A DNA stretch of 64,000 nt from Anolis carolinensis. Taxonomy: Eukaryota. Each line of letters opens with the position of its first letter. The stretch's first letter is position 1. The translations under genes and the position numbers were made by a program. The DNA lies in NCBI RefSeq assembly GCF_035594765.1, contig NC_085843.1:147723971-147787970 (forward strand). Reading direction: 5' to 3'. Shown piece by piece: positions 6,640 through 45,591 of this stretch. The notes under the pieces are model-generated. The model made no database searches. It was not told the DNA's origin and was given only the letters and a program-made list of their open reading frames with translations.

Positions 6640-6945
6640 TCTGAAAACAGGGGAAATCCAGACAGGAAACAATCAGGGCCAGCTAACACCTCCCAACCAA
6701 GGATGCCCCCAGGCTTTGAATATACAAGGCCATTAAATGCTAATCAAGGTGGCTAATTGCAGCATTCACACTAGCCTCAAACAGACAAGAGCTCTTTCTC
6801 CCACCCTGTACTTTCCACGGATATATAAACTCCATTTACCAAGCTTCCAACAGACCTCACAACCTCTGAGGATGCCTGCCATAGATGTGGGTGAAACGTC
6901 AGGAGAGAATGCTTCTGGAACATGGCCAGGCAGCCCAGAGACCTG
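6640..6945 (+). mobile_element. Penelope-like element terminal fragment inside the hAT element
   Basis: Typical lizard PLE end ...CTGAGGATGCCTGCCATAGATGTGGGTGAAACGTCAGGAGAGAATGCTTCTGGAACATGGCCA. Confidence 0.75.
6863..6903 (+). ncRNA. Minimal type I hammerhead ribozyme motif (Penelope-type)
   Basis: Stem I CCT / AGG, core CTGAGGA, stem II GCCTGC / GTGGGT with G-U pairs, then GAAA-CG-TC cleavage site. Confidence 0.7.
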
Positions 6946-9900
6946 GCCTCAAGGAAGGGGTGAGAAGGAAGGCATTTGCCACTTTGGGGAGCAGAGAAGC
7001 GGCGTTTGTCTACTTTGCAGAGTGGGGATCACCTCCTTTCTCGCCAGGAAGGCGATCCCCACTCTGCAAAGCAGAAAAGCGGCATGGGGATCGCTTTTTG
7101 GGCGATGGGCCTGTGTGCACACGCAGGTCTTCCAATCAACCGCATGGATGGGTGGCACTCTCCAGGGGGCTACCGCCACCGCGGGGGCACCTCAACAGTG
7201 CCCTCAGGAACAATGTGCCACATACGACCGCCTAATTGGCCTTGCCGGTGGACCGCCTCTGCTTTCAAGTCACCACTAATTTAAGGCTAAGACTGAGCAA
7301 AGAGTGATGCTGAGACCCTCCTATTGTCTACTCAATATGGCAGTATTTCCTTCATTGCACATCTCTGCCCTATTGCAATATAGCATAAGATATCTATTAA
7401 TCTACTTACTGAGATGCTTTGACTTGGTCAGTCACAAGTTGTGCCATGTATTCTGGAGTAATGCTGTATGAATTATGAAAATGTTCTTTAACACAGAGAA
7501 ATTTACCTATTTTCTCATTGCTGGTATTTTATAATTTCAAAACATGTTCACAAGTACATATTGTTGAACCTCTTAGAAACAAGTTAAGCAATCAAGATTA
7601 TGTTTAAGATCAAGCATCCTACCTTGCTGTTATTAAATAATTTACTTCTAAACTAAGAGCTGATCCGAAACCTCACCAACTAATAACTACTTTTTTAATG
7701 CAACACATTGGAGAGGTCATCTTAATTTGTCAAAAAAGAGAGTCCAGATTAAATCAATCTGCTTTAGAGGAAATACCATAACTCTGCACTGAGACACTAC
7801 AGCAGAAAAAAAATGTATTTTGTTTCTTTTAAAAAGTATGTAGATTTTGTTTGACCATAGAGCAATATCTGAAACATGCATTGTGTTGACCACCTAAAAG
7901 CTCGGGGGTGGGGGGAGCTGTCTTAGATTTATCAGACAAAGATGACAAAAATAATGCAGGGAAGAAGGTGATCATGTTAGAGCCACAGGTCTGCATCATT
8001 TGTGATATTTGTTTAATGTACCCCTTGAGATAGCCTAAATCAGGGCTTCTTAAGCTTTGTCTACTCACAATCCCTTTTTGCTCAAGAAATGTTTATGTGA
8101 CCCTGGATATATAAGTATTAAGCTTATGCAATCTGGGGAAATTGTGAACCGTTTCAGCGTCCTAGATTTGGTGGAGATCCCGATTCGTTTTTGGGAGCCC
8201 CCCCCCCCCGGGGGGGGGAATCTGGGACAGACATCTGTTTTCGCTCTAGGAAGCTGAAATATTTGTTTTCTATCTGGCCCATTGTTGGGGGGAAAGACTT
8301 CTAGGATCCCCTTCCCATCATTTTAGGCATTGCTTGTCCTTATACTCTGTTTCTACTCTAGAGGAGAGGCATTGCAGGCAGGCGCTCGCACTTTAAGGAG
8401 GCTTCTTAACATTGTTTTTTTCTAATTACTCTAGAGGAGAGGCACTGCAGGCAGGCATGCATGGCTTCTCTCCTGGGCCTGTACCACACCACACACTCTT
8501 TCCAAAGCATTTTAAGGAGGCTTTCCACTTCCAGGTAAGGAAGAGCAATGACCTCCTGGAATTATCCTCTCTGGGCTACCTTTAAAAAACCCTCTTTTTT
8601 CTTGACACACTTTAATCTCCTTTCTGCTTTGGTTTTAATGCTTCCTTAGAGCTGTTTCTACCTTATAGTAGAAGGAAGGTAACTAGTTGGTAATAGGTTT
8701 CAGGGAATGAGGGTTTTCTCTTTGTTTGCTGGGATTCTAAGTCCTTGTTAGCTTTGTCCTTTCTACATACAGGTGTATGTTTGTGACGTAGAATATTTAT
8801 CATTTGCATTATCATAGATTGATAAAATCAAAAAGGAACGGAGAAATTGTACATCCTGATTAAATTATTTGTTATTTCAAGCCATAACTTCTAATCAGTA
8901 GCTGTATATATTTTTTTCAATTCGCATCTGGCTTTATACATTTTTTTTCTTCTGAAGTGCATTTCAAACTTTGAAAATGTATGAATCTCCAAGGAAAGAT
9001 GAGTTTTGTTCTGTTTGTGATGTTGAAAAGTGCAAAATTGATACCCTTTCAGAGAAATGTGAATCTAATGGATTTGTTTTATGCTCCTTGTTCACTTTTT
9101 TATGAATTTTGCTAAATTCGCTTGCAGATTATACTTTGCTTCTTGCTGTATTTATAACTTCAATGATGTTGCTGAGCATAGATTTAGCCCAAACCCCTTC
9201 AAATGATTTCATGGTCAATCTCTTTCCTATAAATGTCAGCAGTGAGAAAGACGCTGTTTTCTTATTAAACTTGAAAAGGCCTGCCTATGTTCCACTGTAA
9301 ATGAACAAAGGTGTGGAGCTTGGAGTTGCAGTGTTAGCTTAATAGAAAGGAAAAGAGTAGCATGTGTCTCATTCACTTCCACCTGTCAGACAGGCTCCTT
9401 TGAAATATTCATGAGCTGCATTGTTCTGTCAAGTATAAGGCATCCTTGTTAACATTTTGCTATAATTTAGGGCATATTTCATAAGCACAACTGTTAAATA
9501 TTTATGACTTATGTTCATTACTTAAAAAGCACTTCACATATACATCCCTAGTTTAATTATTAATACTGAGAGTTTGGACAGACCTTGTTTTTATAGCTCC
9601 GCACTTTGGAAAATTAACTTCTCATCTATTGCGTTATTAATATCCCAAGATACTGAACCTACCGAAGAAGAGATGTATATCAGGACAAGCTTGACTATAT
9701 TAACTCCTTAAATACACAATCAACAGCAGACTTGTGAGTAACTGTGATATGAACTGACAGCAACAAAATATCCTCGACAAAACTGTACACCCTGTACACA
9801 TTTTGGTGCAGTACCGAAATGTCATTGTTGTTATCAGGCTTGTACAATGAAATATGGTCCTAAACAAAGTTCAAGCCTGCTTCAAGTGTATGCATATATT

Positions 9901-14304: not shown

Positions 14305-14667
14305 GGACCTCTTCACATGGCTGCTGGGGCCATAACCCTTTCACTGGTAGTTGCTGGTGAAAGGGAACATGCACAGAGTGCCTTGTGGCATCACGTGTGC
14401 CCTCTCTCCATCCGCCATCAGATGAGAGAAAAGACAGCAATGCTTGGCAACGTGCCCCATTGCCCTTTCCCAATGGAGCTATCCGAAAAAAACACTTTCC
14501 TCCCAGTGGTGGCAGAGGAAGTGTCTTGCAAAACTTCTCCTCCACTTCAGGAGGAATGTGGTTGAGGCCTACCAAGCGTTATCTGATTATGCTTGGCAGG
14601 CCCTGTCCAGGCTCATCCACAACTGGAAAAATGGGGCAAAAAAAAAAAAGCCCCATGTGAAAGGTCC
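14305..14667. mobile_element. PIF/Harbinger-like MITE
   Basis: TIRs GGACCT(C)TTCACATGG / CCATGTGAAAGGTCC, 3-bp TTG on both flanks. Confidence 0.65.
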
Positions 14668-25554: not shown

Positions 25555-26547
25555 CATAGAATCATAGAACAGTAGAGTTGGAAGACACCTCATGGGCCAT
25601 CCAGTCCAACCCCCTGCCAAGAAGCAAGAAATCACATTCAAAGCACCCCCGACAGATGGCCATCCAGCTTCTGTTTAAAAGCTTCCAAAGAAGGATCCTC
25701 CACCACAGTCTGGGGGAGAGAGTTCCACTGTTGAACAGCCCTCACAGTGAGGAAGTTCTTCCTGATGTTCAGGTGGAATCTCCTTTCCTGTAGTTTGAAG
25801 CCATTGTTCCGTGTCCTAGTCTGCAGGGCAGCAGAAAACAAGCTTGCTCCCTCCTCCCTATGACTTCCCCTCACATATTTGTACATGGCTATCATGTCTC
25901 CTCTTAGCCTTCTCTTCTGCAGGCTAAACATGCCCAGGTCTTTAAGCCTCTCCTCATAGGGCTTGTTCTCCATTGATCATTTTAGTTGCCCTCCTCTGGA
26001 CACATTCCAGCTTGTCAACATCTCCCTTCAACTGTGGTGCCCAGAATTGGGCACAGTATTCCAGGTGTGGTCTGACCAAGGCAGAATAGAGGGGTAACAT
26101 GACTTCCCTGGATCTAGATGCTATTCCCCTATTGATGCAGGCCAGAATCCCATTGGCTTTCTTAGCAGCCACATCACATTGCTGGCTCATGTTTAACTTG
26201 TTGTCCACGAGGACACCAAGATCTTTTTCACTGCTGTCTAGCCAGGTGTCCCCCATTCTGTATCTTTGCATTCCATTTTTTCTGCCGAAATGAAGTATCT
26301 TGCATTTATCCCTGTTGAACTTCATTTTGTTAGTTTTGGCCCATCTCTCTAGTCTGTCAAGATCATTTTGAATTCTGCTCCTGTCTTCTGGAGTGTTGGC
26401 TATCCCTTCCAGTTTGGTGTCATCTGCAAACTTGATGATCATGCCTTCTAACCCTTCGTCTAAGTCGTTAATAAAGATGTTAAAGAGAACCGGGCCCAGG
26501 ACGGAACCCTGCGGCACTCCACTCGTGACTTCTTTCCAAGATGAAGA
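25555..26547 (-). mobile_element. CR1 LINE, 5'-truncated (ORF2 RT and C-terminus, 3' UTR)
   Basis: [50 protein letters not shown]; TTCTATGA-type tail; frameshift or deletion near 25970. Confidence 0.95.
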
Positions 26548-27719
26548 CCCAACCCCTGCCAATGTTTTCCCCAAACACCACGGCCCACCACCCAAAGAAT
26601 GTTTTCATTGGGGGACCATTTCATCCTAGATTTTGCATTTTCCTCCACCACAGGCAGGCATCCCCTCCGCCCTGGGCGGTGGCAGCGGCAGCAGCAGCAG
26701 GGGGGAGAGGGCAAGTGGGGAGTTCATCCTCTCAAGCCTAGGAGCCGCACTGCATGAGTAGAAAAAGGAGGAGCACCGCCCACTTCGAGCGCCCGCAGTG
26801 GCCTCAGCAGCCATGCAACGACACCTCCCTCAGAGGTGTCACTCTTCTTCTTCTGCTCCTCTGCTCTTCCTTCCCTTCCCCCCACTCTTGGCTGCACGAG
26901 ATGACCAAATGCAGGCTTTTCCTGCCCGGGAGCTTGCCAATTGGGGGGACCCCCAAAGGTCATCTAGTCCAACCAACCACATTTTGCACGTGGTGAGGAG
27001 GAGAGGAGAGGGGGAGGAAGCCAAAGCTGCAATGGCACCTGCAGGCTGCATCAGAGGATTGATTCATGAGTGACCCTGGGAGGAGGAGGCGGGGGGTGCA
27101 TGCGCATGTGGGAGTGCCTCAACTGTGCCCCATAGAGGATGGCACCTTCGGCAACTGCCTAATTTGCCTTGCAGTTGAACCACCCCTGCATATGGCCTTC
27201 CCTACACCTAAGCATAGGTGCACATAGGGCAGGTGTAAGACATTGTTTCATTATGTAGTCTAGCAGGGAGAAGCATCTACCAATTCTGTTGGGTTTTGTA
27301 CATTAACTGGAATAAGGTCACCATCTTGTCCTTCACTTCATAAAAGAATTGGCCCAGACCTCTCAGGTAAGAATGCTTGAAGCACACAATCTCTGTTAGT
27401 TTCAGTTATGAACTGGCTTGGTCTACATTGAAATAATTCATAGGTCAGAACAGATTTCTAAATGTCCTCTTTTTCATATGTTTGGGAGGTTAATTGATAG
27501 GTTGCATACGTACAATAGGCACCGCTTAATGGCCTAATCACAAAATAAACAAATAAAAACAAATCAAAAGGCCTTTGATACTTAATCTGGTGTTGGACTG
27601 ATCGATCTGCCCATTTTATAATAGCCCCATTCTTGAGGTGTCGCCAATGCTATATTGCACTTTGTCCATTTTAACTGTGAAATTACCTTCCCCATTTCGG
27701 CCCATTTCGGCACATGTTG

Positions 27720-28952: not shown

Positions 28953-29741
28953 CTCCACAAAAGTCAACACTGACACTGAAATACAACACCGCCTGAGCTC
29001 TGCGAGTGCAGCATTTTTCAGAATGAAGCAGAGAGTGTTTGATGATCGGAACATCCGTAGAGATACCAAGGTGCTTGTTTACAAAGCCATTGTCCTCCCA
29101 ACCCTGCTCTATGCCTGTGAAACATGGACGGTCTACAGACATCACACCCAACTCCTGGAGCGTTTCCATTAGCGTTGCCTCAGAAAAATCCTGAAAATCT
29201 CTTGGGAAGACAGGCGGACAAATGTCAGCGTGCTGGAAGAAGCAAAGACCACCAGCACTGAAGTGATGCTCCTACGCCATCAACTCCGCTGGACTGACCA
29301 CGTTGTCCGAATGCCTGATCACCGTCTCCCAAAGCAGCTACTCTACTCTGAACTCAAGAACGGGAAACGTAATGTTGGTGGGCAGGAAAAGAGATTTAAA
29401 GATGGGCTTAAAGCCAACCTTAAAAACTGTGACATAGATACTGACAACTGGGAAGCCCTGGCCCTTGAGCATTCTAATTGGAGGTCAGCTGTGACCAGCA
29501 GTGCTGCGGAATTCAAAGAGGCACGGATGGAGGGCTTAAGGGAGAAATGTGCCAAGAGGAAGGCCCATCAAGTCAACCCTGACCGGGACCGCCTTCCACC
29601 TGGAAACCGATGTCCTCACTGCGGGAGAACATGCAGATCAAGAATAGGTTTCTTCAGCCACCTAAGAACCCACCCCCAAGACACCAGAGATGGAAGACAA
29701 TCCTCCTCGAGCTACGAGGGATTGCCTAAGTAAGTAAGTAA
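28953..29741 (+). mobile_element. RTE-clade LINE 3' fragment
   Basis: YKAIVLPTLLYACETW, QLRWxxHVVRM, C-terminal CPHC...HLRTH zinc finger, (TAAG)n tail, TSD GGAGTTGCT (28944-28952 / 29742-29750), one in-frame stop at 29170-29172. Confidence 0.93.
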
Positions 29742-32907: not shown

Positions 32908-33963
32908 GACCTCTTCACATGGCCTCTTCACAGTCACCAGCAAAAGGCAAGGTGCGGGGGGGGGGTGGCTTGTGGTGCCCCATGCACCCTCTCTCCTTCC
33001 TCTGTCATATGGTGGGGACAGGGTGCATTGGCACCCTGTCCCCATCAGATGAGAGAAAGAACAGCAATGTGTGACAATGCTACCCTTTTCCCCGTCATAC
33101 GGGGAAAGGGGGAGGAAAGAGGAAAACACACTTTCCTCCCCATGTTGGTGGAAGAAGCGCTTTCCAGCGCTTCCCCTCCACTTTGGGAGGTGTCACACCT
33201 CAGGTTAGCTTCACCCTGCTGTATACATCAAACTGCACACAGGTTGAAGTCTTTTTAGTTTATTAGGAAATAGAAGATAAAAAGTTATTTAAAAGCAAAC
33301 ATAAAGTTCCAAAAGATGGTTACAAAATAAAGCTTTAGAAAATAATAATCCAAGAAATCACAAGGAATAAACAAAGTCCCATTAGAGCATGACAAAGTTC
33401 CATGAACATGAACACAAAAGCTGCAAGATAATCCAGGAAAACAAGAGCTTGCTTTTGGGTTGAACAAAAGTTGCTTTGGCAAAGGTTTGTCTCCAAACAC
33501 ATTGCTTTAATACCCTTTGCAAAGCATGAAAGCATTTGGCCTCTGACCTCCTTCTTGTTTGCTATTCTCACACTCCTTTGAACCCTGAATTCCAAATGGT
33601 CAGCTCGATCTAAAGATTCTGTTTCATCAAGGTCAGCCTGCTTGCTATCAGACTGAGAACTGTCCTCCTTTTCTAAGTCAATTTGCACCTGGCTAGTTTC
33701 AGTATCAACAACATCATTCCTTGCTGTGGGAAAATGAACTTGCACTCTTTGTTACTCATCTTCTACAACAGGGACATTTTGAACCTGATTTTGAGCCTGA
33801 ATCCCACCATCCTCATCAGAGTCCATCTGAGGCTCCAGCTGAGTCACAACAGGAGGAATGTTGGCAAGTCTGCTGAGCATTATCTGATGATGCTCAGAAG
33901 TCCCTGTCTAGGCCTGGCCAAAAGCAGCAAAACGGGGCTGTTTTAGCTCTATGTGAAGAAATC
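32908..33963. mobile_element. Second copy of the same MITE family, split by the solo LTR
   Basis: Shares CCATCAGATGAGAGAAA, AAACACTTTCCTCCC, CCTCCACTT..GGAGG|AATGT and TTATCTGAT.ATGCT with 14305-14667. Confidence 0.7.
33191..33851 (-). mobile_element. Solo LTR of a second Gypsy-like family (661 bp)
   Basis: TG...CA termini, 5-bp TSD GGAGG (33186-33190 / 33852-33856), minus-strand TATTAAA and CTAATAAACT signals; cleanly interrupts a MITE whose halves rejoin across it. Confidence 0.85.
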
Positions 33964-39248: not shown

Positions 39249-40398
39249 TGTTATGATTGAGCCTCATGGCTCTGTTACTGACAGACGTGGGCGTAAGACT
39301 CCTCGAGAGTCAGATACTCTCGAGGAGCGAGAGAGAAAAAGACTGCGAGACATATTTGCAGCACCATCTGACGAAGAGTCTTTCGAGGGGTTTACGGAGA
39401 GAATGGAGGAGGGGCTGGTTAGCTCAGAGGAGGATGAGATGGATTGGACTCGGGTAAGGGAGGAATTGGGTGCCACTGGCCATGATGGGATAGAAGATGA
39501 ATGGGGACCTTCAGGATTAGACCCATGGCTTAGCTGGAGGGATGGGACGGGATCCACAGCTGGAGATGCTGTTGGGCGTAGTCAGAGGTGTTCCAGCTCT
39601 GACGAGGAAAGTGATGAGGAAACGCCCGGGTTAAGGAGGACAGCTGACAGTGATGAGGATTTGTAACTGGCATAAAATGGGGCTTGGGAGCAATTGCAAA
39701 TTGCGTTGGGCAAGGTAATCTGGACAAACGCTTGGGATCTGTGTGTGTGGGACGCTTTCCTGAAGACTGGTGTGTTTTCCTGTGCTGAGACGTAAGTGGT
39801 TTTGGAATTCAGGGTCAGACGGCGGGAGGAATTGTGTGGGCATTTGTTTGTGCAAACCTGTGCTTACTCTTATTAGCTTGACCTTCCGTCGTCTTCTTGA
39901 CGGACGCCATCTCCTGCTTTGAAAACTCGGACTGAACTGACCACGGCTTGTCTTCCCCCCCTTCTTGGACTTGGAAAAACTACAAACGTCTGCTTCTGGC
40001 TTTGATCTACGGAACGGAACTGGTCTACTCTACTGCTACAATCCTTGGCTGATCTGCTCGTGTTGGAAATCCTGTCTGCTGTGTGTGTGTGGGAGCGACG
40101 CAAGTTACTCTAAGCACAGTGTTGGCAGCAGAGAGGAATCTGCTGCCAATTAGTTGCATTCTTTGTATCTTTTGTTCCTTGGCTTTCGTTTTGTTTATAC
40201 CCAGGCTGAAGCAAGCAGTTTGTTTTTACCCGGATTAAAATCCGGTTTAATCCGGTTTATCTTTTGAACATTTACTTTTGTCCCTTTTTGCTCCTAAAGG
40301 CAAATACTGCCTGGCCCTTGTGTTTTACGGGCATTTTTTGAGTTCTGTAATCTAATAAACTCTGTTACTTTGAATCTTGTGGCGTTCTGTCCTTGACA
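39249..40398 (+). repeat. 5' LTR
   Basis: Starts TGTTATGATTGAG and ends CCTTGACA. Matches 44442-45591 except G/A at 39860/45053 and A/C at 40240/45433 (differences found by eye). Confidence 0.97.
39671..39677 (+). promoter_or_regulatory. TATA-like box of the LTR promoter
   Basis: CATAAAA about 32 nt upstream of the inferred transcript start at 39703. Confidence 0.6.
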
Positions 40399-40400
40399 GA

Positions 40401-40411
40401 TTGCCCAACGC
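40401..40411 (+). promoter_or_regulatory. Self-priming-type primer binding site
   Basis: TTGCCCAACGC lies 2 nt after the 5' LTR, lacks the TGG of a tRNA PBS, and is the exact reverse complement of GCGTTGGGCAA at 39703-39713. Confidence 0.8.
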
Positions 40412-40453
40412 CCATAAAAAGTTTATTGCAGCAATAAACCCGTCAGGAAGACG

Positions 40454-41254
40454 ATGGATGAGTTAAGGGCCAGATTTGACCAATTGCAGACGGCTTTTAT
40501 CGTTAGCCAAACAGCTCATGCTGTGAAAGGACATGTTTTGCCTCCTGAACGCTTTGACGGAACCAGGTGCAAGTTGCCAACCTTTTTGGCACAAGTGGAG
40601 CTTTATTTTTCTCAGCTCAGTGCTCATGCTTTTCCTACAGACACTAGCAAGGTGGCCTTTATTTTGAGTTTGTTGACCGGTCCCGCAGGACAATGGGCCA
40701 CTAATTTAATTTTGGGAAATGACCCAGTCAAGGACAATTTGAATAATTTCAAAAAGTTGTTAACTGATACTTTTGGGGATCCTCTCCGCACGGAGAACGC
40801 TGGGTGGGCTCTGTATCGGTTGAAACAGGGAAAGGGGACTGTTTTGGATTACTTAAATAAGTTTAACCTGTATCGCCACCAGCTGGATTGGGGGGAAAAT
40901 GCATTCATGCTTTTATTTACTGCCGGGTTAAGTGATATGCTCCAGGATGAATTAGCACGCTTGGAGCCGGCTGAAAGCTGGGACGCCTTAGTAGCCAAGG
41001 TGCTGCGTTTAGACGCAAGGTTCGAGGCTCGCAAACACTCAAAAGCAATGTGTGCGCCACCCATGCATGTAACCAGGGCACCTGTGGTGATGGGGGAAGA
41101 GCCCATGGAGCTTGGGGTCTTTAAAAAGCTGTCTACAGAGGAAAAGAGCCGTAGGAGGCAGCTGGGCTTGTGTTTGTACTGTGGGAATGCTGGGCATTTT
41201 GCCAAAGATTGTAATGTGAAACCTTCCCAGCTTTCGGGAAAAGGCCAGCCCTAG
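40454..41254 (+). CDS. gag: Gag, 266 aa, retrotransposon capsid plus CCHC zinc knuckle
   Basis: PERFDG...FLAQ, LxQGxxxV..Y...F major-homology-like region, EPMELG and CLYCGNAGHFAKDC, as in sushi/PEG10-type Gag. Confidence 0.95.
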   Translation: MDELRARFDQLQTAFIVSQTAHAVKGHVLPPERFDGTRCKLPTFLAQVELYFSQLSAHAFPTDTSKVAFILSLLTGPAGQWATNLILGNDPVKDNLNNFKKLLTDTFGDPLRTENAGWALYRLKQGKGTVLDYLNKFNLYRHQLDWGENAFMLLFTAGLSDMLQDELARLEPAESWDALVAKVLRLDARFEARKHSKAMCAPPMHVTRAPVVMGEEPMELGVFKKLSTEEKSRRRQLGLCLYCGNAGHFAKDCNVKPSQLSGKGQP

Positions 41255-41282
41255 TGCGACGTGAGTCCAACGCACTAGGGCT
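41236..41282 (+). promoter_or_regulatory. -1 programmed ribosomal frameshift signal
   Basis: G GGA AAA heptamer in the gag frame (41236-41242), followed by a perfect 12-bp stem AGCCCTAGTGCG / CGCACTAGGGCT (41247-41258 / 41271-41282). Confidence 0.85.
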
Positions 41283-44200
41283 CCTCAAGCAGTCAACTGA
41301 GGGGAGGAAGCATGTTTTCGTACCCATTACATTATCTGTTGGGGGAAGGGAACTTGTTTCTACTTTGGCACTGCTGGACTCAGGGGCTACGGTCTCTTAT
41401 GTAGATATTGAGTTTGCTAAGAAGCATGGCATTCCTAGAGTGCGCAAGGCATGCGACGTGTGGGTGGAAGGAGCAGATGGGAGACTGCTGGAGACTGGGG
41501 TGGTTAACCATGAAACCTCAGCAGTAATGTGGGAGGTGCAGGGAGTAACGGGAACGTTTGTGTGGGATATTACGAGCTTGCCTAGATATGATGTGATCCT
41601 GGGGATGGATTGGCTAGCTGTAGTAAACCCACAAGTAGATTGGGCGACACGTAAAGTGATCTTAAAGAGGCAGGATTGTTGCACTCTAAATGTTACTCAT
41701 TCTGATATGGAGGGAGTGCCTGCTGAGTATGGGGAGTTCTCTGATGTATTTTGTAAAAGAGAAGCGGACAAATTACCACCGCACAGGCCATATGATTGCG
41801 CCATCAAGTTGGCAGAAGGTGCGAAATTGCCAGCAGGGAGGCTGTATGCCTTGACTGTACTGGAAAGGCAAGCTTTGCGGGAGTTTCTAGATGAAAATTT
41901 AGCCAAGGGGTTTATTCGCCCATCTAGTTCTCCAACTGCGGCACCAGTATTCTTTGTAGCCAAAAAGACTGGGGAACTTAGGCTGGTCTGCGACTATCGG
42001 ATCCTAAACAAATACACCATTCGGGATAGGTACCCGCTCCCTTTAATCTCGGAACTGTTATCAAGGGTGCAAGGGGCTAAGGTCTTTACCAAGCTTGACC
42101 TGCGGGGGGCCTATAACTTAATCCGTATACGGGAAGGGGATGAATGGAAGACGGCATTTAACACGTGTTTCGGATGCCACGAGTTCCGAGTCATGCCTTT
42201 TGGGCTTTGTAATGCTCCTGCGGTCTTCCAGAGGTTCATGAACGATGTGTTCAGGGACCTAATTGACCAACTTTTAGTGATTTATTTGGATGATATCTTG
42301 GTTTTTTCTAAGGACGAGAAAGAACATCGTCAACATGTCAAGCAGGTTCTGCACCGACTGCGGGCTAATGGGCTTTTCGCCAAGGCTTCCAAGTGCGTCT
42401 TTCATGTGCCTGAAGTGGAGTTCCTAGGTCATGTAGTGTCAGGTAGGGAACTTAAAATGGACCCACATAAGGTTGACGCCGTCAACTCATGGCAGGAGCT
42501 GAAGACTAAGAAGGATGTACAAAGGTTCTTAGGTTTCGCTAATTACTACCGGGAGTTTATTCCGAATTTTGCAAAGCTCACGGTACCTTTGACGCAGCTC
42601 CTGCGCAAGAAACAGCCATTTGTGTGGGGGCGGGAAGCTCACGAGGCGTTTCTACAACTTAAGTCTAGTTTTCAATCGGATAACATACTAACCCATCCTG
42701 ATGTTGACAAACCGTTCGTGGTAGAAGCGGACGCTTCTAGCTACGCGTTGGGGGCTGTATTGTCTCAGAAGGATTCCTCAGGGACCTTGCGTCCCTGTGG
42801 ATTTTACTCGCGGCAACTAACACCCTTCGAGCAGAACTATACCATATGGGAGAAGGAGTTGTTGGCGATTAAGGTGGCGTTTGAGGTGTGGCGGCACTGG
42901 CTTGAAGGGGCACGGCACCAGATCGTGGTCAGATCTGATCACAAGAACTTAGAGCACTTGCAAACAGCAAAGAAGTTAAACCAGCGTCAAATCCGATGTG
43001 CTTTGTTTTTCTCCAGGTTTAACTTCAAGGTGCAGTTCGTGGAGGGGAAGGCAAACTTGCGGGCCGATGCTTTATCCCGCAAGCCGGAGTTTAAGACCAA
43101 TGAGCAGGTAGTATGTCAGACCATCTTGCCTACTGCCTCTCTGTGTGTTGTAGATAATGAGCTCGGGTTACATGACCAGATCCTTGAGGCTCAGAGGGAT
43201 GATGTGTGGACACAGGAGCAACTGATGCTGCTCTCAGCAGGTAACCGTACCATACTGCCGCATCTACAAGATCAAGACGGAGTATTGGTACGCAGGGGGC
43301 AGGTCTACGTACCAGTGGGGGCCCTCAGGTTGGAGGTGATTAGAGCCCACCATGACGAACCCATGGCTGGGCACTTTGGCAGGTTCAAGACCGTACAGCT
43401 TATCACCAGGAGCTACTGGTGGCCAAAGATGCGGCAAGACATTCTGCGCTTTTGTGACAGCTGCGCCGTTTGCCAGCAGAGTAAGACGCCTGTTGGGCGC
43501 CCTAGAGGGTTGTTGTCGTCTCTACCTGTTCCGGAGAGGGCATGGCAAATCATTTCCATGGATTTTATTTCAGATTTGCCTAAGTCTGGGGGTTATACTT
43601 GTATTTGGGTGGTGGTGGATTTATTTAGTAAACTGGCTCATTTTATTCCTTGTTCAACCATTCCGGCGGCCCCTACGTTGGCCTTACTATTTACTAAGCA
43701 CATCTATCGTTTGCACGGAGCACCCGAGGTGATTATTTCAGATAGGGCTCCGCAATTTGTGTCACGCTTTTGGAAACATTTCCATGAGTGCTTGGGGACT
43801 AAGTTAAACGTTTCTTCAGCCTTTCATCCGCAAACGGATGGACAGTCGGAACGGGTTAATGGGCTCTTAGAGCAGTATTTGCGTTGTTTTTGTTTAGATC
43901 AACCCACGGCTTGGGTGAAGTGGTTACCGGTGGCGGAATTCGCTTACAACAATGCGGTGCACACGTCTAGTCAGCATACGCCATTTGAGCTAACTTATGG
44001 TTTTCACCCACGGGGAGGTGTGGCGCCGTCGACCAATGTGGTCTCTTCGGACCCTGTATACCGCTCTTCGGAAATGGCTGCATTGCATGATGTTGCCCGT
44101 CGCTTACTGTTGGAAGCTGAGGCAACGCAGAAGACTCAGGCTGACCGCCACAGGCAGGCAGGGGAGGAGTTGGAAGAAGGGGATTTGGTGTGGTTATCTT

Positions 44201-44859
44201 CCAAACATATTAAACAGGCTGGGGGAAAGTTTGCGCCTCGGTATTTGGGTCCCTTTCCTATCGTTAAAAAGATTTCTTCCGTTGCGTTTCGTTTGCGTTT
44301 ACCGTCTAGTTTAAAGGTCCATCCAGTCTTTCATCGTTCGCTGTTGAAACTTGATACCTCTAGTCGTCGTGGTGCTATAGCGGAGGGTATCACTGCCACT
44401 TCTCCGCCATCGGGGGAGGAGGCCTTTGTGAGAGGGGATAGTGTTATGATTGAGCCTCATGGCTCTGTTACTGACAGACGTGGGCGTAAGACTCCTCGAG
44501 AGTCAGATACTCTCGAGGAGCGAGAGAGAAAAAGACTGCGAGACATATTTGCAGCACCATCTGACGAAGAGTCTTTCGAGGGGTTTACGGAGAGAATGGA
44601 GGAGGGGCTGGTTAGCTCAGAGGAGGATGAGATGGATTGGACTCGGGTAAGGGAGGAATTGGGTGCCACTGGCCATGATGGGATAGAAGATGAATGGGGA
44701 CCTTCAGGATTAGACCCATGGCTTAGCTGGAGGGATGGGACGGGATCCACAGCTGGAGATGCTGTTGGGCGTAGTCAGAGGTGTTCCAGCTCTGACGAGG
44801 AAAGTGATGAGGAAACGCCCGGGTTAAGGAGGACAGCTGACAGTGATGAGGATTTGTAA
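41254..44859 (+). CDS. pol: Pol (protease, RT, RNase H, integrase plus LTR-encoded acidic tail), most likely made as Gag-Pol by -1 frameshift near 41236-41242
   Basis: LLDSGA protease, YLDD RT, ADAS..LGAVL and EKELLAI RNase H, HH..CC zinc site, D-D-E core, GPF and HPVFH..LLK module; uninterrupted 1201-codon ORF in the -1 frame relative to gag. Confidence 0.96.
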   Translation: MRRESNALGLLKQSTEGRKHVFVPITLSVGGRELVSTLALLDSGATVSYVDIEFAKKHGIPRVRKACDVWVEGADGRLLETGVVNHETSAVMWEVQGVTGTFVWDITSLPRYDVILGMDWLAVVNPQVDWATRKVILKRQDCCTLNVTHSDMEGVPAEYGEFSDVFCKREADKLPPHRPYDCAIKLAEGAKLPAGRLYALTVLERQALREFLDENLAKGFIRPSSSPTAAPVFFVAKKTGELRLVCDYRILNKYTIRDRYPLPLISELLSRVQGAKVFTKLDLRGAYNLIRIREGDEWKTAFNTCFGCHEFRVMPFGLCNAPAVFQRFMNDVFRDLIDQLLVIYLDDILVFSKDEKEHRQHVKQVLHRLRANGLFAKASKCVFHVPEVEFLGHVVSGRELKMDPHKVDAVNSWQELKTKKDVQRFLGFANYYREFIPNFAKLTVPLTQLLRKKQPFVWGREAHEAFLQLKSSFQSDNILTHPDVDKPFVVEADASSYALGAVLSQKDSSGTLRPCGFYSRQLTPFEQNYTIWEKELLAIKVAFEVWRHWLEGARHQIVVRSDHKNLEHLQTAKKLNQRQIRCALFFSRFNFKVQFVEGKANLRADALSRKPEFKTNEQVVCQTILPTASLCVVDNELGLHDQILEAQRDDVWTQEQLMLLSAGNRTILPHLQDQDGVLVRRGQVYVPVGALRLEVIRAHHDEPMAGHFGRFKTVQLITRSYWWPKMRQDILRFCDSCAVCQQSKTPVGRPRGLLSSLPVPERAWQIISMDFISDLPKSGGYTCIWVVVDLFSKLAHFIPCSTIPAAPTLALLFTKHIYRLHGAPEVIISDRAPQFVSRFWKHFHECLGTKLNVSSAFHPQTDGQSERVNGLLEQYLRCFCLDQPTAWVKWLPVAEFAYNNAVHTSSQHTPFELTYGFHPRGGVAPSTNVVSSDPVYRSSEMAALHDVARRLLLEAEATQKTQADRHRQAGEELEEGDLVWLSSKHIKQAGGKFAPRYLGPFPIVKKISSVAFRLRLPSSLKVHPVFHRSLLKLDTSSRRGAIAEGITATSPPSGEEAFVRGDSVMIEPHGSVTDRRGRKTPRESDTLEERERKRLRDIFAAPSDEESFEGFTERMEEGLVSSEEDEMDWTRVREELGATGHDGIEDEWGPSGLDPWLSWRDGTGSTAGDAVGRSQRCSSSDEESDEETPGLRRTADSDEDL
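44430..44441 (+). promoter_or_regulatory. Polypurine tract
   Basis: GAGAGGGGATAG directly abuts the TG start of the 3' LTR. Confidence 0.8.
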
Positions 44860-45591
44860 CTGGCATAAAATGGGGCTTGGGAGCAATTGCAAATTGCGTT
44901 GGGCAAGGTAATCTGGACAAACGCTTGGGATCTGTGTGTGTGGGACGCTTTCCTGAAGACTGGTGTGTTTTCCTGTGCTGAGACGTAAGTGGTTTTGGAA
45001 TTCAGGGTCAGACGGCGGGAGGAATTGTGTGGGCATTTGTTTGTGCAAACCTATGCTTACTCTTATTAGCTTGACCTTCCGTCGTCTTCTTGACGGACGC
45101 CATCTCCTGCTTTGAAAACTCGGACTGAACTGACCACGGCTTGTCTTCCCCCCCTTCTTGGACTTGGAAAAACTACAAACGTCTGCTTCTGGCTTTGATC
45201 TACGGAACGGAACTGGTCTACTCTACTGCTACAATCCTTGGCTGATCTGCTCGTGTTGGAAATCCTGTCTGCTGTGTGTGTGTGGGAGCGACGCAAGTTA
45301 CTCTAAGCACAGTGTTGGCAGCAGAGAGGAATCTGCTGCCAATTAGTTGCATTCTTTGTATCTTTTGTTCCTTGGCTTTCGTTTTGTTTATACCCAGGCT
45401 GAAGCAAGCAGTTTGTTTTTACCCGGATTAAACTCCGGTTTAATCCGGTTTATCTTTTGAACATTTACTTTTGTCCCTTTTTGCTCCTAAAGGCAAATAC
45501 TGCCTGGCCCTTGTGTTTTACGGGCATTTTTTGAGTTCTGTAATCTAATAAACTCTGTTACTTTGAATCTTGTGGCGTTCTGTCCTTGACA
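44442..45591 (+). repeat. 3' LTR
   Basis: Direct repeat of the 5' LTR at offset 5193, followed by TSD GTGAT. Confidence 0.97.
45547..45552 (+). terminator. LTR polyadenylation signal (copy at 40354-40359)
   Basis: AATAAA about 40 nt before the LTR end, followed by GT/T-rich sequence. Confidence 0.65.

Follow-up and report, generated by a model that had tools for sequence, protein, structure and literature searches.

The 64,000-nt stretch of Anolis carolinensis DNA analysed here (the window) contains, on its minus strand, a solo LTR of 661 bp at 33191..33851, with TGT…ACA ends and no internal region. The target-site duplication CCTCC flanks it at 33852..33856 (5' side) and 33186..33190 (3' side), both in minus-strand orientation. 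The initial annotation had placed the LTR limit at 33335, which is the end of the reading frame described below; the true LTR end is 33191. A TATA-like TATTAAA at 33506..33512 (-) marks the presumed end of U3, and an AATAAA polyadenylation signal at 33259..33264 (-), ~70 nt from the LTR 3' end, leaves a short U5. The LTR is a sharp-ended member of a dispersed multicopy family with promoter and poly(A) signals in place. It is inserted in an older dispersed repeat (33042..33190, no strand assigned; families D14 and D18), whose paralog at 14415-14554 has the corresponding empty site near 14550-14560, where the CCTCC pentamer occurs once. Contig comparison of other copies of the host repeat gave joints from 33190 to 33876/33881.

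The 5-bp duplication and the AATAAA near the LTR 3' end are chromovirus-type features that are not exclusive to that clade; 5-bp duplications are found outside chromoviruses too. In the reading favoured below, the parent would be a chromovirus-type Gypsy element. Sushi-like LTRs are described in the available part of PMC3601003 (section 12) as having a 5-bp duplication, a 3'-proximal AATAAA and a short U5, and the same source gives terminal motifs of TGTYANR and CNTNACA for Sushi and TGTTRKR for Mag A. Over the 40 of 89 variant rows covered, the 5' end of this LTR, TGTTGTG, differs from the Sushi motif at position 5, and the 3' end differs at the first C. The 5' end fits Mag A, and the 3' end is nearer to Sushi/rGmr1.

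The window also contains a near-intact, very young Tf1/sushi-type Gypsy element at 39249..45591 (+), which served as a comparator. Its LTRs show 2 mismatches in 1151 aligned columns, and it is flanked by a GTGAT duplication. The gag gene (40418-41254, +) is in a different frame from pol (41215-44859, +), with a short overlap. Pol crosses into the 3' LTR at 44442, is read there in phase 2 and stops shortly ahead of a TATA-like signal; it has no chromodomain, and over the searched region is 91-99% identical to Anolis carolinensis UniRef proteins. The LTR-encoded pol tail carries DEESFEGF (44563-44586, +; 5' LTR copy at 39370-39393), which is retained in anole relatives and has the acidic FxGF pattern of LEDGF-IBD partners, according to the available text of 10.1101/624023.

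The element also has an 11-nt complement between its putative R start (39703-39713) and the sequence just after 40398, and no tRNA-type primer site was seen in it; we take this combination to indicate Tf1-like self-priming. For the solo LTR, complementarity between U5 and R close to the putative start did not exceed 4 nt, a test that is uninformative because the full element failed it as well, giving 5 nt. Elsewhere in the window, LINE-like frames lie at 25954-26604 (-), 29173-29733 (+) and 6737-7279 (+), presumably fragments of CR1 and RTE/Bov-B LINEs.

The initial annotation called the two LTRs unrelated, and their best match is only 15 nt long (E = 0.12). This common 15-mer (33582-33596 and 39801-39815) reads LEFRV in phase 2 of both LTRs and was dismissed as a chance match.

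The U3 reading frame in this copy and its family

Translation of the solo LTR in phase 2, the phase in which pol of the full element reads its own LTR, reproduced the acidic peptide with one stop that had been reported. The acidic U3 frame covers codons 1-106 (33533..33850, -), with 24 Asp or Glu residues, and extends to 33335 in this copy; we propose that it is the C-terminal tail of an upstream protein. Its single stop is at codon 33 (33752-33754, -). Within LTR nt 1-337, phases 1, 2 and 3 contain 14, 1 and 6 stops, and their counts of acidic residues are 7, 24 and 4. In 20,000 dinucleotide shuffles, the probability of at most one stop was 0.011 for phase 2 and 0.032 for any phase, that of at least 24 acidic residues was 5e-5, and no shuffle combined few stops with this acidity. 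The frame shows codon periodicity, with G at position 1 in 46 of the 106 codons and A at position 2 in 49. In R/U5, each of the phases contains 4-6 stops. A Pfam search with both pieces of the frame matched no family.

To compare this copy with others, contigs of four runs (24 listed) were examined over 33131-33911; no RNA data set was among those listed. In run X1, the summed contig depth, which is not a copy number, was ~5,000-48,000 inside the LTR against 34-52 at 33860-33911. Depth in the LTR is hundreds of times above that of its left flank and the edges are sharp at both ends; the LTR belongs to a high-copy family. Most contigs resemble this copy at the 90-95% level, so its insertion is not recent.

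At 33754, the first base of the stop, 99.96-100% of depth differs in all four runs, as predicted for an intact codon in the family, so the stop is a private change of this copy; P0086, a predicted protein from another copy, reads through its place. At 33579, 93-96% of depth differs in all four runs, changing codon 91 to Arg (codon effects at both sites were read by hand). Most copies therefore carry the predicted RRSxR[IL]. For its single early ATG, at codon 9, 96-99% of depth has another letter, and translation in most copies must therefore come into the frame from upstream.

Among gapped pieces, the net change in length was divisible by three in 10 of 11 from U3 and in 3 of 11 from R/U5 (Fisher P = 0.0075). 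After collapsing likely repeats, about 5/6 to 6/7 of U3 indels kept the frame (P = 0.02-0.007), values drawn from 32 of 8,636 pieces that are non-independent, since alleles repeat, and from a U3 whose 12-nt tandem unit favours slips of 3n. A 4-letter length difference at 33534, present in 26-52% of depth, places the frame end at the TATA-like signal when read by hand, and the frame end in this variant resembles that of pol in the full element. The variant rows covered (40 of 89) include 13 U3 sites, four of them at intermediate frequency.

This high-copy LTR family thus has an open, frame-conserved U3 frame that carries the motif and lacks a start of its own. Two findings had been named as counting against such a frame, its closure in the family and the loss of the RSxR motif; neither occurred in the contigs of the four runs.

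A search for the parent element recovered no pol with this tail among 55 candidates within proteins of 187-2000 aa. A phmmer search of 1.84 billion representatives returned only P0086, a 78-aa gene-model chimera, and the fetched proteins gave no tail match beyond it. A 21-nt U5 pattern had no matches in metagenome and viral contigs. Each run gave 20-62 loose ends at 33851, the LTR 5' end; over 24 of 747 rows they revealed no dominant purine tract (agreement 0.34-0.40), and their reading as a purine tract was dropped, the ends being heterogeneous. The plurality letter adjoining the LTR 5' end is identical in all four runs at this low agreement (0.34-0.40), possibly a target-site bias. The P0172 family, a 160-member anole Gypsy cluster, could be the parent of the LTR. 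Its gag and pol form a single frame of 1606 aa, which is extended at the N-terminus by a long acidic stretch and lacks both chromodomain and tail; its pol ends right after SH3/GPY-F, at the same place in 13 of 17 listed members.

The basic motif and the tails of related elements

The acidic tail carries the basic motif QRSVRIANK at 33554..33580 (-), with Arg as the first residue in most copies, and this motif is its only net-positive 15-residue block. The probability of RSxR[LIV] in phase 2 was 0.010 in DNA shuffles, and that of RSxR[LI] was 0.002 in protein shuffles, both for patterns chosen after seeing the sequence. CENP-C is an arginine-anchor binder of the acidic patch on nucleosomes, and the lizard motif resembles a further group of such binders. 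The R-R-S-x-R-[L/I] spacing noted as HMGN-like in the lizard motif is indeed that of HMGN RRSARLSA, RRSSRLTS of the tardigrade protein Dsup and RRSARIAT of the yeast protein Dot5, and most lizard copies share 6 of 8 residues with the Dot5 motif, among them the Ser and all three Arg.

In the accessible portions of the respective papers, RRSARLSA is given as the HMGN core (PMC12480509), and the RRSSR segment of Dsup contacts the acidic patch through R363, R364, S365 and the anchor R367 (PMC12487698). RRSARIAT of Dot5 binds the acidic patch and requires R6, R7 and R10 (PMC13347269, text available in part). Dsup was called the sole known non-vertebrate protein with an HMGN-like motif at that time, and an 'untapped realm' of others was predicted (PMC12487698, same portion); Dot5 joined these proteins afterwards (PMC13347269). 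HMGN, Dsup and Dot5 are host proteins with tested binding, whereas the lizard frame belongs to a retroelement and has no homology to them outside the motif. Over the HMGN nucleosome-binding domain, the search gave 0 Pfam families and phmmer found no HMGN match; the LTR-encoded tail is not an HMGN protein. Chromatin tethering through the acidic patch has likewise been proposed for LANA of KSHV, IE1 of CMV and the foamy virus Gag CBS, but their motifs differ, and foamy virus uses Gag rather than an LTR-encoded integrase tail (PMC9040877, as far as its available text goes).

To place the tail among related elements, the pol C-terminus of the full element, which lacks the RRSxR motif, was used as a query and retrieved 84 proteins. 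Tails were parsed for 65 of them; 19 of the 84, and 10 of the 75 proteins retrieved by a second query, were left out for want of a GPY/F anchor or for a tail above 420 aa. Five squamate-type families continue past an RGDS/VM-like junction: the window's own, P0006, P0009/P0010/P0079, P0007 and a degraded cobra sequence. Outside the window's own family, these junctions were read from protein sequence rather than DNA. The tails are acidic in four of the five families, and the HMGN core is present in one, P0006 from Podarcis.

Podarcis muralis P0006 (UniRef100_A0A670IJD3) retains a chromodomain and passes a putative RGDG/VM junction (RGDS/VM in the window element) into an acidic tail of ~110-117 aa (117 aa in the parsed sequence), with RRSARL 16 aa from the end (PRRSARLK). 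Of 15 listed members, five extend as far as the junction, and all five retain the motif although there are indels in their spacers. It was first found by the query without the motif, and its shuffle P was 3e-4. The charge profile of this tail is similar to that of the lizard LTR frame, but the two have no alignable similarity and P0006 keeps its chromodomain.

The other families end differently. P0009/P0010 from Podarcis carry an acidic FxGF in the linker before the junction and end in the basic RRESRRR; P0007 ends in RRRWDRRR, neither basic end having the HMGN spacing. At its junction, DG/VV, P0007 has the same first two residues as the solo-LTR frame. Of the 65 parsed tails, one contains RRSxR[LI] and five contain acidic FxGF; both are absent from protein bodies (65,614 residues for RRSxR[LI]). 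With one tail in 65, the HMGN-type motif is not general.

The initial annotation had suggested that U3-encoded acidic integrase tails are a general design in this lizard Gypsy group, with different families carrying different docking motifs. The second part is borne out by RRSARL in P0006 and acidic FxGF in the window element and P0009/P0010. The first holds in so far as pol also seems to continue into an acidic tail in other squamate chromoviruses; as a general rule it goes too far, since the HMGN core is found in only one of the five families and the 160-member anole family P0172 is tailless.

The second query, the P0006 tail with its motif included, retrieved 75 proteins, and four extra RRSxR[LI] matches were fetched by the motif word. 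Among them is a metagenomic chromovirus lineage (P0179-P0181, P0184 and cluster members) whose 11 aligned proteins all have an unchanged RRSARL, within a variable acidic insert that splits the chromodomain. Having been fetched by the shared word, this lineage shows conservation, not frequency.

Proposed function of the encoded tail

Because the genomic RNA contains U3 from the 3' LTR only, the frame would form the end of an upstream ORF. We propose that the final ~105-110 residues of the parent's last protein are encoded in U3, that they belong, most likely, to the integrase end of a chromovirus-type Gypsy pol, and that reading would pass into the frame from upstream, over the polypurine tract. 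Its product would be an acidic, probably disordered spacer ending in the RRSxR[IL] arginine anchor, through which the integration complex may be held at the H2A-H2B acidic patch in the manner of the HMGN, Dsup and Dot5 motifs. This solo copy would be a silent, decayed remnant. The nearest design known to us is that of plant CRM group A chromoviruses, whose CR motif is tied to centromeres, with its partner unidentified in the available part of PMC3059260; the lizard frame differs from it in being acidic, low-complexity, HMGN-like and reptilian, and in that its link to pol is deduced.

Fusion of the frame to pol in the parent is probable, and, given fusion, binding of the motif to the acidic patch is about as probable. 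That the motif helps choose integration sites is more speculative. For the whole proposal, that the U3 of this LTR family encodes an integrase tail with an HMGN-like acidic-patch anchor in a CR-motif-type design, we see the chances as evenly balanced.

The frame could instead be the end of a separate 3' ORF overlapping U3, as are nef, sag and bel, in a parent such as an early-stopping-pol Gypsy of the P0172 kind, a BEL element or a class III ERV. We consider this rather unlikely. The protein and DNA-pattern searches found no parent pol, 13 of 17 listed P0172-family members have a pol without a tail, the LTR ends are mixed (Mag A-like 5', Sushi/rGmr1-like 3') and the 5-bp duplication is not exclusive to chromoviruses, all of which would fit such an ORF. 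Against it, the phase and length of the frame match the pol read-through of the window element and the four putative squamate-type cases, and the short U5 is as in Sushi.

Less probable still is that the integrase tail is real and the basic cluster serves as an NLS, a DNA-binding patch or a kinase site. The tails of P0009/P0010 and P0007 end in basic clusters without HMGN spacing, motifs of five to six residues are weak evidence, and a Ty1 integrase NLS reportedly serves targeting by another route; but three lineages share precisely the R-R-S-x-R-[L/I] spacing, which coincides with the Dsup contact positions (PMC12487698, available portion). We regard it as very improbable that the frame is non-coding, its acidic open phase an accident of a purine-rich U3 with 3n-periodic enhancer units. 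The 12-nt tandem unit, the mostly non-synonymous listed private changes in this copy and the lack of a Pfam match for either piece are in keeping with such an accident. They stand against the joint signal in 0 of 20,000 shuffles, the private stop, frame-keeping indels confined to U3, and a phase identical to the proven read-through in the neighbouring element.

The integrase-tail reading can be extended. The U3 of the 3' LTR, together with other acidic linkers, might be a swappable cassette of host-mimicking chromatin-docking motifs, with this family and P0006 independently of HMGN type and the neighbouring element carrying FxGF; we hold this only tentatively. A full-text literature search, covering titles and abstract openings, with most subscription journals, Repbase and supplements outside its scope, gave no such motif in a retrotransposon and no U3-coded tails in squamate Gypsy elements among the matches listed.

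The proposed tail bears on the way in which vertebrate Gypsy elements that lack a working chromodomain get to chromatin. If it is real, families with different motifs in one genome are predicted to differ in their insertion patterns. Were the cassette reading true as well, vertebrate Gypsy elements would have foamy-virus-like and lentivirus-like targeting routes written in their promoter DNA.
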